This document shows, piece after piece, positions 13,001 through 13,567 of a stretch of 64,000 nt of DNA (positions within the stretch are counted from its first letter, which is position 1; each line of letters begins with the position of its first letter). The stretch is taken from contig OZ024762.1 of NCBI GenBank assembly GCA_964016885.1, positions 2,356,001 through 2,420,000 on the forward strand, read 5' to 3'. The position numbers and the translations under genes are program-made. This stretch comes from Eledone cirrhosa. Its lineage: Eukaryota. The notes under the pieces were generated by a model. The model searched no databases. It worked only from the letters and a program-made list of their open reading frames with translations, and had not been told where the DNA came from.

Positions 13001-13396
13001 CACTCACACAGAAACACAGACTTGCGCACATACACTCACACAGAAACACAGACTTGCGCACACATAAACACTCACACACACACATATATATATACACTCA
13101 CACAGACTTGCGCACACATATATATATACACTCACACAGAAACAGACATGCCCACACATAAACTCGCACAGAAATGCACACATATACACTTATATATATA
13201 CACTCACATTTATATACACACACACACACATATATATATATATAGAAAAAGAGATGAAATCGAAAATGCAACTGGAGTCTTATTTTAAAAAATATATATA
13301 TATATTTATTTGGTTCCTTTCCCGGTTTCGCAGTTCTTCTGCTTTTCAAAAGTAGAGTTGAGATGGAGAAAACCACAGACCCTCCATCTCAACTCA

Positions 13397-13434
13397 CCTT
13401 TTGAAAAGCAGAAGAACTGCGAAACCGGTAAAGG
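13397..13434 (+). ncRNA. Minimal type I hammerhead ribozyme, U3-A8 core variant
   Basis: CCUU-UUGAAAA-GCAG-AAGAA-CUGC-GAAA-CCGG-UA/AAGG: stems I and II perfect, palindromic short stem III (ACCGGU), GUA site. Confidence 0.75.
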
Positions 13435-13567
13435 AACCAAATAAATATATATTTAAAAAAAAAAAAATAAGACTCCAGTTGCATTTTCGATTTCATCTTT
13501 TTTCCTTTATACTTTCACTCGTGTAGGACACCTCGGTTATTTTTCATTTTGTAAAAAAAACCCTCAC

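Follow-up and report, generated by a model that had tools for sequence, protein, structure and literature searches.

Minimal type I hammerhead ribozymes with a U3-A8 pair in the core have been described from Penelope-like elements (PLEs). Using a dedicated descriptor, the 2014 study by Cervera and De la Pena (PMC4209133) reported approximately 1,300 such motifs in Schistosoma mansoni, along with opposite-strand hammerhead pairs located 100-700 bp apart; among the rows of that study considered here, a PLE-linked Schistosoma row has UUGAAAAA and the PLE-linked U3-A8 row has U17. According to the same source, minimal PLE hammerheads are inactive as monomers and show low activity as dimers. The U3-A8 pair is also recorded as a natural variant in PMC3088659, and a C3-G17 trap has been proposed for minimal hammerheads (PMC3884650). 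With regard to the insertions themselves, the accessible text of PMC8557442 describes PLE copies that are joined to an inverted, 5'-truncated copy, carry an optional tail on one end and are biased toward (TA)n and other microsatellites, the inverted copies being mostly head-to-head (PMC3846280) and the one-sided tail 30-40 bp long (PMC8557442, PMC3846280). The tail has been explained as the stretch between two start sites of the reverse transcriptase (RT), the template being unprocessed RNA, and the PLE hammerhead has been found to be protein-assisted, with one that cut only in the presence of its protein, and dispensable for insertion in vitro (PMC11167929). PLEs have been annotated in O. vulgaris in a paper whose accessible part does not mention hammerheads (PMC13282606); further context is provided by the accessible parts of PMC6765202 and PMC6155905. 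Among the literature matches listed, none was a paper on octopod PLE ribozymes, and a study by Lunse et al., the title of which refers to PLE hammerhead dimers, may cover the variant or cephalopods.

The hairpin described here starts at about position 13245 of a 64-kb window, that is, the entire stretch of DNA that was analysed. U3-A8 minimal hammerheads and opposite-strand pairs have been known from PLEs since 2014, and the hairpin is an expected relic. This octopod repeat is likely the non-coding 3' end (pseudo-LTR) of a PLE that was inserted head-to-head in (TA)n, with a U3-A8 hammerhead that, by prediction, can neither fold nor cut at this site. The locus consists of the following features.

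13228-13246, no strand: (TA)n run with 7 TA units, adjoining the short (tail-less) terminus; likely insertion target
13245-13368, minus strand: left arm, comprising the 5'-truncated element end in inverted orientation and lacking the tail; it ends directly on (TA)n
13316-13353, minus strand: mirror hammerhead, predicted to be inactive, in which the core is UUGAAAA, the cleavage triplet GGA and stem I 3 bp long
13369-13381, no strand: head-to-head junction spacer of 13 nt
13382-13511, plus strand: right arm, a 5'-truncated element end that reaches the short terminus at ~13507-13511
13397-13434, plus strand: minimal type I hammerhead motif with a GUA site; cleavage predicted after 13430
13440-13445, plus strand: AATAAA, a possible polyadenylation signal just 3' of the ribozyme motif
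13512-13574, plus strand: one-sided tail of 63 nt that reaches the long terminus
13574-13604, no strand: (TA)n run adjoining the long terminus

The inverted arms (~13245-13368 and ~13382-13505), each of 124 nt and separated by the 13-nt loop (13369-13381), are identical in 116 of the 130 columns of their alignment, with the mismatches found mainly in a (TA)n/A-run block. The minimum free energy of the hairpin is -173.4 kcal/mol (z -26.8), and equal stability was reached in none of 200 shuffles. The original prediction of ~125-bp inverted arms around a ~13-nt loop is borne out by these values; its description captured the arms and the motif but missed the 63-nt one-sided tail and the flanking (TA)n. 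Since both flanks of the element are (TA)n, a target-site duplication is unreadable. Both ribozyme copies point outward from the loop, which corresponds to head-to-head, inverted, 5'-truncated copies. Within the 64-kb window, neither a further copy of the arm nor a tandem partner for the hammerhead was found. The possibility that the hairpin is a fold-back artefact of the assembly or the reads was rejected: substitutions and indels distinguish the two arms from each other, and a tail on just one side is seen again in other hairpins as well as in contigs from public runs. Just downstream of the hairpin, at 13686-13770 (-), and again at 35120-35202 (-), there are 86%-identical copies of another element end beside (TA)n, the latter of which contains GAAA-CAATTG-TT and AATAAA.

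The motif on the plus-strand arm is parsed as CCUU / UUGAAAA / GCAG-AAGAA-CUGC / GAAA / CCGG / UA / AAGG, with U3 at 13401, A8 at 13406, G10.1 at 13408, C11.1 at 13420, U16.1 at 13429 and A17 at 13430. The core box 3-9 (UUGAAAA, 13401-13407) has a Watson-Crick 3-8 pair in the form of U3-A8; the 4-bp helix II (GCAG/CUGC) is closed by G10.1-C11.1 (pair probability 0.83) and followed by GAAA; stem I (CCUU/AAGG) has 4 bp, and the NUH triplet is GUA. The stem III sequence, ACCGGU, is palindromic through 15.2-16.2, with a predicted duplex energy of -10.3 kcal/mol. The base between A9 and G10.1, which is typical of PLE motifs but is not part of the published descriptor and does not define them, is absent. 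Judging by the sequence, the motif matches PLE minimal hammerheads as they are defined by sequence and structure, minus this typical extra base after A9, and it agrees with the PLE hammerhead consensus in the accessible text of PMC4209133. The mirror copy reads ACUU...CCGG-GA-AAGG, so that a U16.1>G change is combined with the loss of one stem I pair. Both arms have U3 and A8 and differ at few other sites; coming from one shared template, they are not independent evidence of conservation. A dimer-type minimal hammerhead with U3-A8, stem II and ACCGGU at 13397-13434 had been proposed at the outset, and both the descriptor described below and the parse agree with it; so does the broken NUH of the mirror (GGA instead of GUA), to which the reduction of stem I to 3 bp has to be added, its inactivity being a prediction. 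The presence of the U3-A8 core is likewise upheld, but its standing as an unusual variant was overstated, given that it is already published as natural (PMC3088659, PMC4209133, accessible text).

The descriptor allowed four Watson-Crick 3-8 cores, at least 4 bp in stems I and II, a palindromic or paired stem III, and UH. In the window, it matched at 13401 on the plus strand alone and not at the mirror copy; of 150 locally dinucleotide-shuffled windows, it matched 0 when G-U pairs were disallowed and 1 when they were allowed, and these values somewhat understate chance because the descriptor was designed after the motif had been seen. A MITE or another fold-back with a chance hammerhead look-alike would account for a short, non-coding, multi-copy sequence with long inverted repeats and TA-rich flanks, and a mariner transposase relic is located in the window at 21086-21706; we consider this very improbable, however, considering that the descriptor matches just 0-1 of 150 shuffles, that the inverted repeats are not both terminal, with the 63-nt tail extending one arm, that both termini recur across copies and that unrelated fold-backs in the window bear other hammerheads. 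In an Rfam covariance search, the hairpin yielded no hammerhead match, and a CUGAUGA-core control at 5958 was missed as well. A degenerate motif scan returned five metagenome loci and no viral ones; the three loci with ORFs listed look bacterial and coding, and all five matches were dismissed as chance because they lack UH and stem I.

Returning to the published systems, to the extent that the accessible parts of these sources allow, the octopod motif shares with the PLE minimal type I hammerheads (PMC4209133) the U3-A8 pair, the short helix I, the G10.1-C11.1 pair and the palindromic 15.2-16.2, as well as a predicted dimer and the occurrence of solitary or opposite-strand paired copies. It differs from them in that A9 is followed by no extra base, as is also the case in the Marsupenaeus and Saccoglossus 2 rows, in its 4-bp helix II and in having A17, rather than U17, alongside U3; furthermore, no octopod host is present among the published rows compared, and the motif has no ORF link here. 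With the inverted-pLTR-plus-tail insertions of endonuclease-bearing PLEs (PMC3846280, PMC8557442, PMC11167929), the locus has in common the head-to-head inverted truncated copy, the tail at one end, the AT-rich or (TA)n target and the hammerhead near the 3' end; the differences are that there is no ORF between the arms of the octopod hairpin and that the tail is 63 nt long compared to the published 30-40. Non-LTR retrozymes (bioRxiv 10.64898/2026.07.22.740005) are also non-coding, with a type I hammerhead and a proposed derivation from PLEs, but form head-to-tail tandems, in contrast to the single inverted pair of the octopod hairpin, which provides no sense dimer in cis.

In the predicted fold of the full locus, the probability of stem II is ~1e-18, compared to 0.84 in one arm alone. 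A transcript through both arms is thus predicted to bury the ribozyme in a -173 kcal/mol duplex, such that it could not fold or cut here. Even in the lone motif, pairing of U3 with A17 would cover the cleavage site: the U3-A17 pair has a probability of 0.56 in the monomer and makes the dimer 1.4 kcal/mol better, values obtained with nearest-neighbour energies that ignore tertiary contacts. This putative trap parallels the C3-G17 trap of minimal hammerheads in the accessible text of PMC3884650, and by this analogy, cutting by the U3-A8/A17 motif is predicted to be slow. The earlier hammerhead parse of this motif stands, but the burial in the duplex and the U3-A17 cover had been overlooked. The swapped dimer fold has -18.9 kcal/mol versus -6.4 per monomer. 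An active self-cleaving RNA, as was implicit in the original description, might conceivably be produced if a promoter near the loop transcribed the right arm only, given that stems I and II form in the right arm on its own (probabilities 0.39 and 0.84), which has GUA and a downstream AATAAA. Upstream of the motif, however, there are just 15 nt of the arm and the 13-nt loop; read-through transcripts would adopt the long duplex; the tandem partner is absent from the window; the minimal motifs in the literature show no activity as monomers and little as dimers (PMC4209133, accessible text); one PLE hammerhead required its protein for cleavage (PMC11167929); and the U3-A17 trap is predicted by analogy with C3-G17 (PMC3884650, accessible text). 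Activity of this kind is, accordingly, highly unlikely.

The hairpin at 13245-13574 is one copy of a dispersed, highly repeated element with (TA)n flanks. Words of the locus are shared with public runs of several organisms (17 rows, of which 3 contain at least half of the words, all from one sample), and at 80% likeness, run X1 contributes 2543 contigs that match 13473-13574, and runs from three further organisms contribute 6, 6 and 1; the contig depth is confined to this 3' part of the element, being zero over the ribozyme half in the four runs, and the summed depths are not copy numbers. Among the loose ends listed, contigs depart at the short terminus at 13507 (31 X1 contigs, mixed consensus) and 13511 (37 X1 contigs, (TA)n consensus), with single contigs of X4 and X5 also continuing into (TA)n. 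At the long terminus, again among the loose ends listed, 23 and 21 X1 contigs cross the tail into (TA)n, as do contigs of X4 and X5, and one X9 contig halts at the tail end. The family, then, has two 3' termini, short and tailed, both of which recur across copies. A host hairpin-RNA gene, such as an siRNA or miRNA precursor or an editing substrate kept for its duplex, would be expected to form a long, near-perfect duplex as seen here, and generic miRNA hairpin models are similar to the hairpin, but below threshold only, with no Rfam match at the gathering score; as the sequence is repeated at dispersed sites and the 64 kb contain at least 12 similar hairpins, we regard such a gene as improbable in the extreme.

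The same contigs bear on the origin of the U3-A8 pair. It could be proposed that the parent of this PLE-type relic had a C3-G8 core (CUGAAGA), and U3 and A8 resulted from two transitions in the lineage that happen to be complementary. Both changes are indeed transitions, every other full core in the window reads CUGAUGA, the published PLE-linked U3-A8 row carries U17 (PMC4209133, accessible text), and U3-A17, which is predicted to close an extra pair that is 1.4 kcal/mol better in the dimer, would be a poor design for a selected ribozyme. Nevertheless, both changes are common to both arms, the remainder of the plus-strand motif is intact, and in run X1, 1785 of the 2543 contigs on the 3' part are at least 95% alike to the hairpin copy. 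Two targeted lesions are thus unlikely, and we consider decay of a C3-G8 core an improbable origin. Likely, U3-A8 was inherited from the parent instead of arising by decay at the hairpin locus.

The assignment to PLEs rests on architecture given that no RT or GIY-YIG sequence is linked to the repeat family. A Pfam search of 150 of the 328 frames of the window (144 top-ranked and 6 at hairpins) detected mariner, LINE-type and host-gene pieces and no PLE-type domain; there is no ORF in the relic hairpin, and the ribozyme and tail are not spanned by an ATG frame, in contrast to the Penelope/Poseidon pLTRs as described in the accessible text of PMC3846280 and in PMC11167929. The locus works like a PLE end, and membership proper would need an RT-GIY-YIG ORF. 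Under the proposed scenario, the GIY-YIG endonuclease of the parent would nick AT-rich DNA, in this case (TA)n; reverse transcription would begin internally on uncleaved RNA of the element, at either of two start sites, yielding a short or a tailed terminus, and would halt at a point 49 nt upstream of where the ribozyme cuts; the inverted arm would then result from a switch of template or a second priming event. In the tandem transcript of the parent, two motifs could pair via ACCGGU, and the resulting dimer would undergo slow cleavage, probably assisted by a protein.

A scan for inverted repeats with spans below 600 nt, which favours short truncations, gave 31 rows, 18 of which were removed by eye: 11 belonged to a 72-bp tandem family, 4 were derived from microsatellites, and the other three were a nested row, a SINE-like pair and a larger duplication. 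The 13 fold-backs thus retained by eye, including the hairpin at 13245, belong to ~8 families. Outward-reading matches to a descriptor of the hammerhead 3' half were found in 9 of the 13, compared to 0.92 expected from the rate elsewhere in the window; in the arms alone, such 3' halves are outward in 8 and inward in 1 of the 13. The enrichment is indicative only inasmuch as the choice of fold-backs and the 3'-half descriptor are post hoc, and the matches in the hairpin at 22942 lie off its presumed ribozyme site. Runs of (TA)4 or longer adjoin 9 of the 13 fold-backs. CUGAUGA cores are present in two fold-back families, at 5958, 5731 and 37587 in one and at 23110 in the other, and the members of one family place the tail on either side, with (TA)n at the opposite end. 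In 10 of 11 hairpins, the cut site could be placed by eye, and the start of the arms lies 5-85 nt upstream of this site (49 nt in the hairpin at 13245), which implies that uncleaved RNA would have served as the template.

Several of these fold-backs merit separate description. Those at 5674-6011, 32860-32940 and 37525-37641 make up a canonical type I hammerhead family with CUGAUGA, a short stem II, a looped 3-bp stem III, GUA and a stem I of up to 6 bp, which is missed by Rfam. A second family, at 10085-10332, 24505-24628, 54415-54530 and ~52300-52360, has a hammerhead 3' half with GAAA, a 4-bp stem III and GUC, and its members have in common a one-sided tail, with (TA)n at the other end. In the third family (11694-11838 and 32490-32575), the stem III palindrome is CAATTG, and the fold-back point of the hairpin at 32490 falls exactly on this palindrome, without a spacer. 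Full or partial hammerhead-like motifs are found in the fold-backs at 22942-23211, 32604-32742 and 59400-59699 (CUGAUGA at 23110 and GAAA-CGCGCG-UC at ~59629). The fold-back at 36924-37166, which is similarly built and has no hammerhead match, might hold another structured RNA or a hammerhead-less element end. A CACTC or AACTC word occurs a few bases past the short terminus in unrelated families (tails at 13512, 10295, 24629, 54414, 11839 and 59696) and possibly is a start signal for the RT.

A broader reading would be that octopod genomes are paved with ORF-less hammerhead-PLE fold-back relics, 13 of them here, in which the folded ribozyme sets the point where the RT stalls and snaps back. 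This derives from the arms that begin 5-85 nt upstream of the cut site in 10 hairpins, one of them exactly on the stem III palindrome, a pattern drawn from hairpins with spans below 600 nt, which favours short truncations; we consider it a long shot. Were it true, a U3-A8/A17 ribozyme damped by U3-A17 would have been retained because of its fold and not because it cuts fast, and the relics would amount to a large, unrecognised source of dsRNA in octopods. A-to-I editing is heavy in these animals. The single locked copy at 13245 gives no answer as to the role of the PLE ribozyme, but the many families of the window offer comparative material on it, and the combination of U3-A8 with A17 represents a cheap natural test of whether the 3-17 pair damps minimal hammerheads. 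With the present locus, the known U3-A8 minimal hammerheads gain an octopod family. Where short hairpins border (TA)n in this octopod genome, they are likely to be PLE ends, and annotators of repeats could take them for MITEs or precursors of miRNAs.

The rest of the window is microsatellite-rich animal DNA. The ORF at 30004-31245 (+), of the RanBP-type zinc-finger kind, is 63% identical, over 30028-31245, to an Octopus sinensis protein, which points to an octopod host. Host exons include pieces of a DUF4551 gene at 40441-63682 (-) and a PAP2_C-like exon at 22200-22490 (-). Mariner transposase and LINE-type relics are located at 20841-21706, 8302-8742, 26265-26783 and 52824-53243; the last of these, which has no Pfam match, we take by eye to resemble a restriction-like endonuclease end. 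The 72-bp tandem repeat family is dispersed over 19808-20717, 28430-29383, 36040-36595, 38030-38817 and 49020-49917, and its array at 29110-29383 terminates in an inverted unit.
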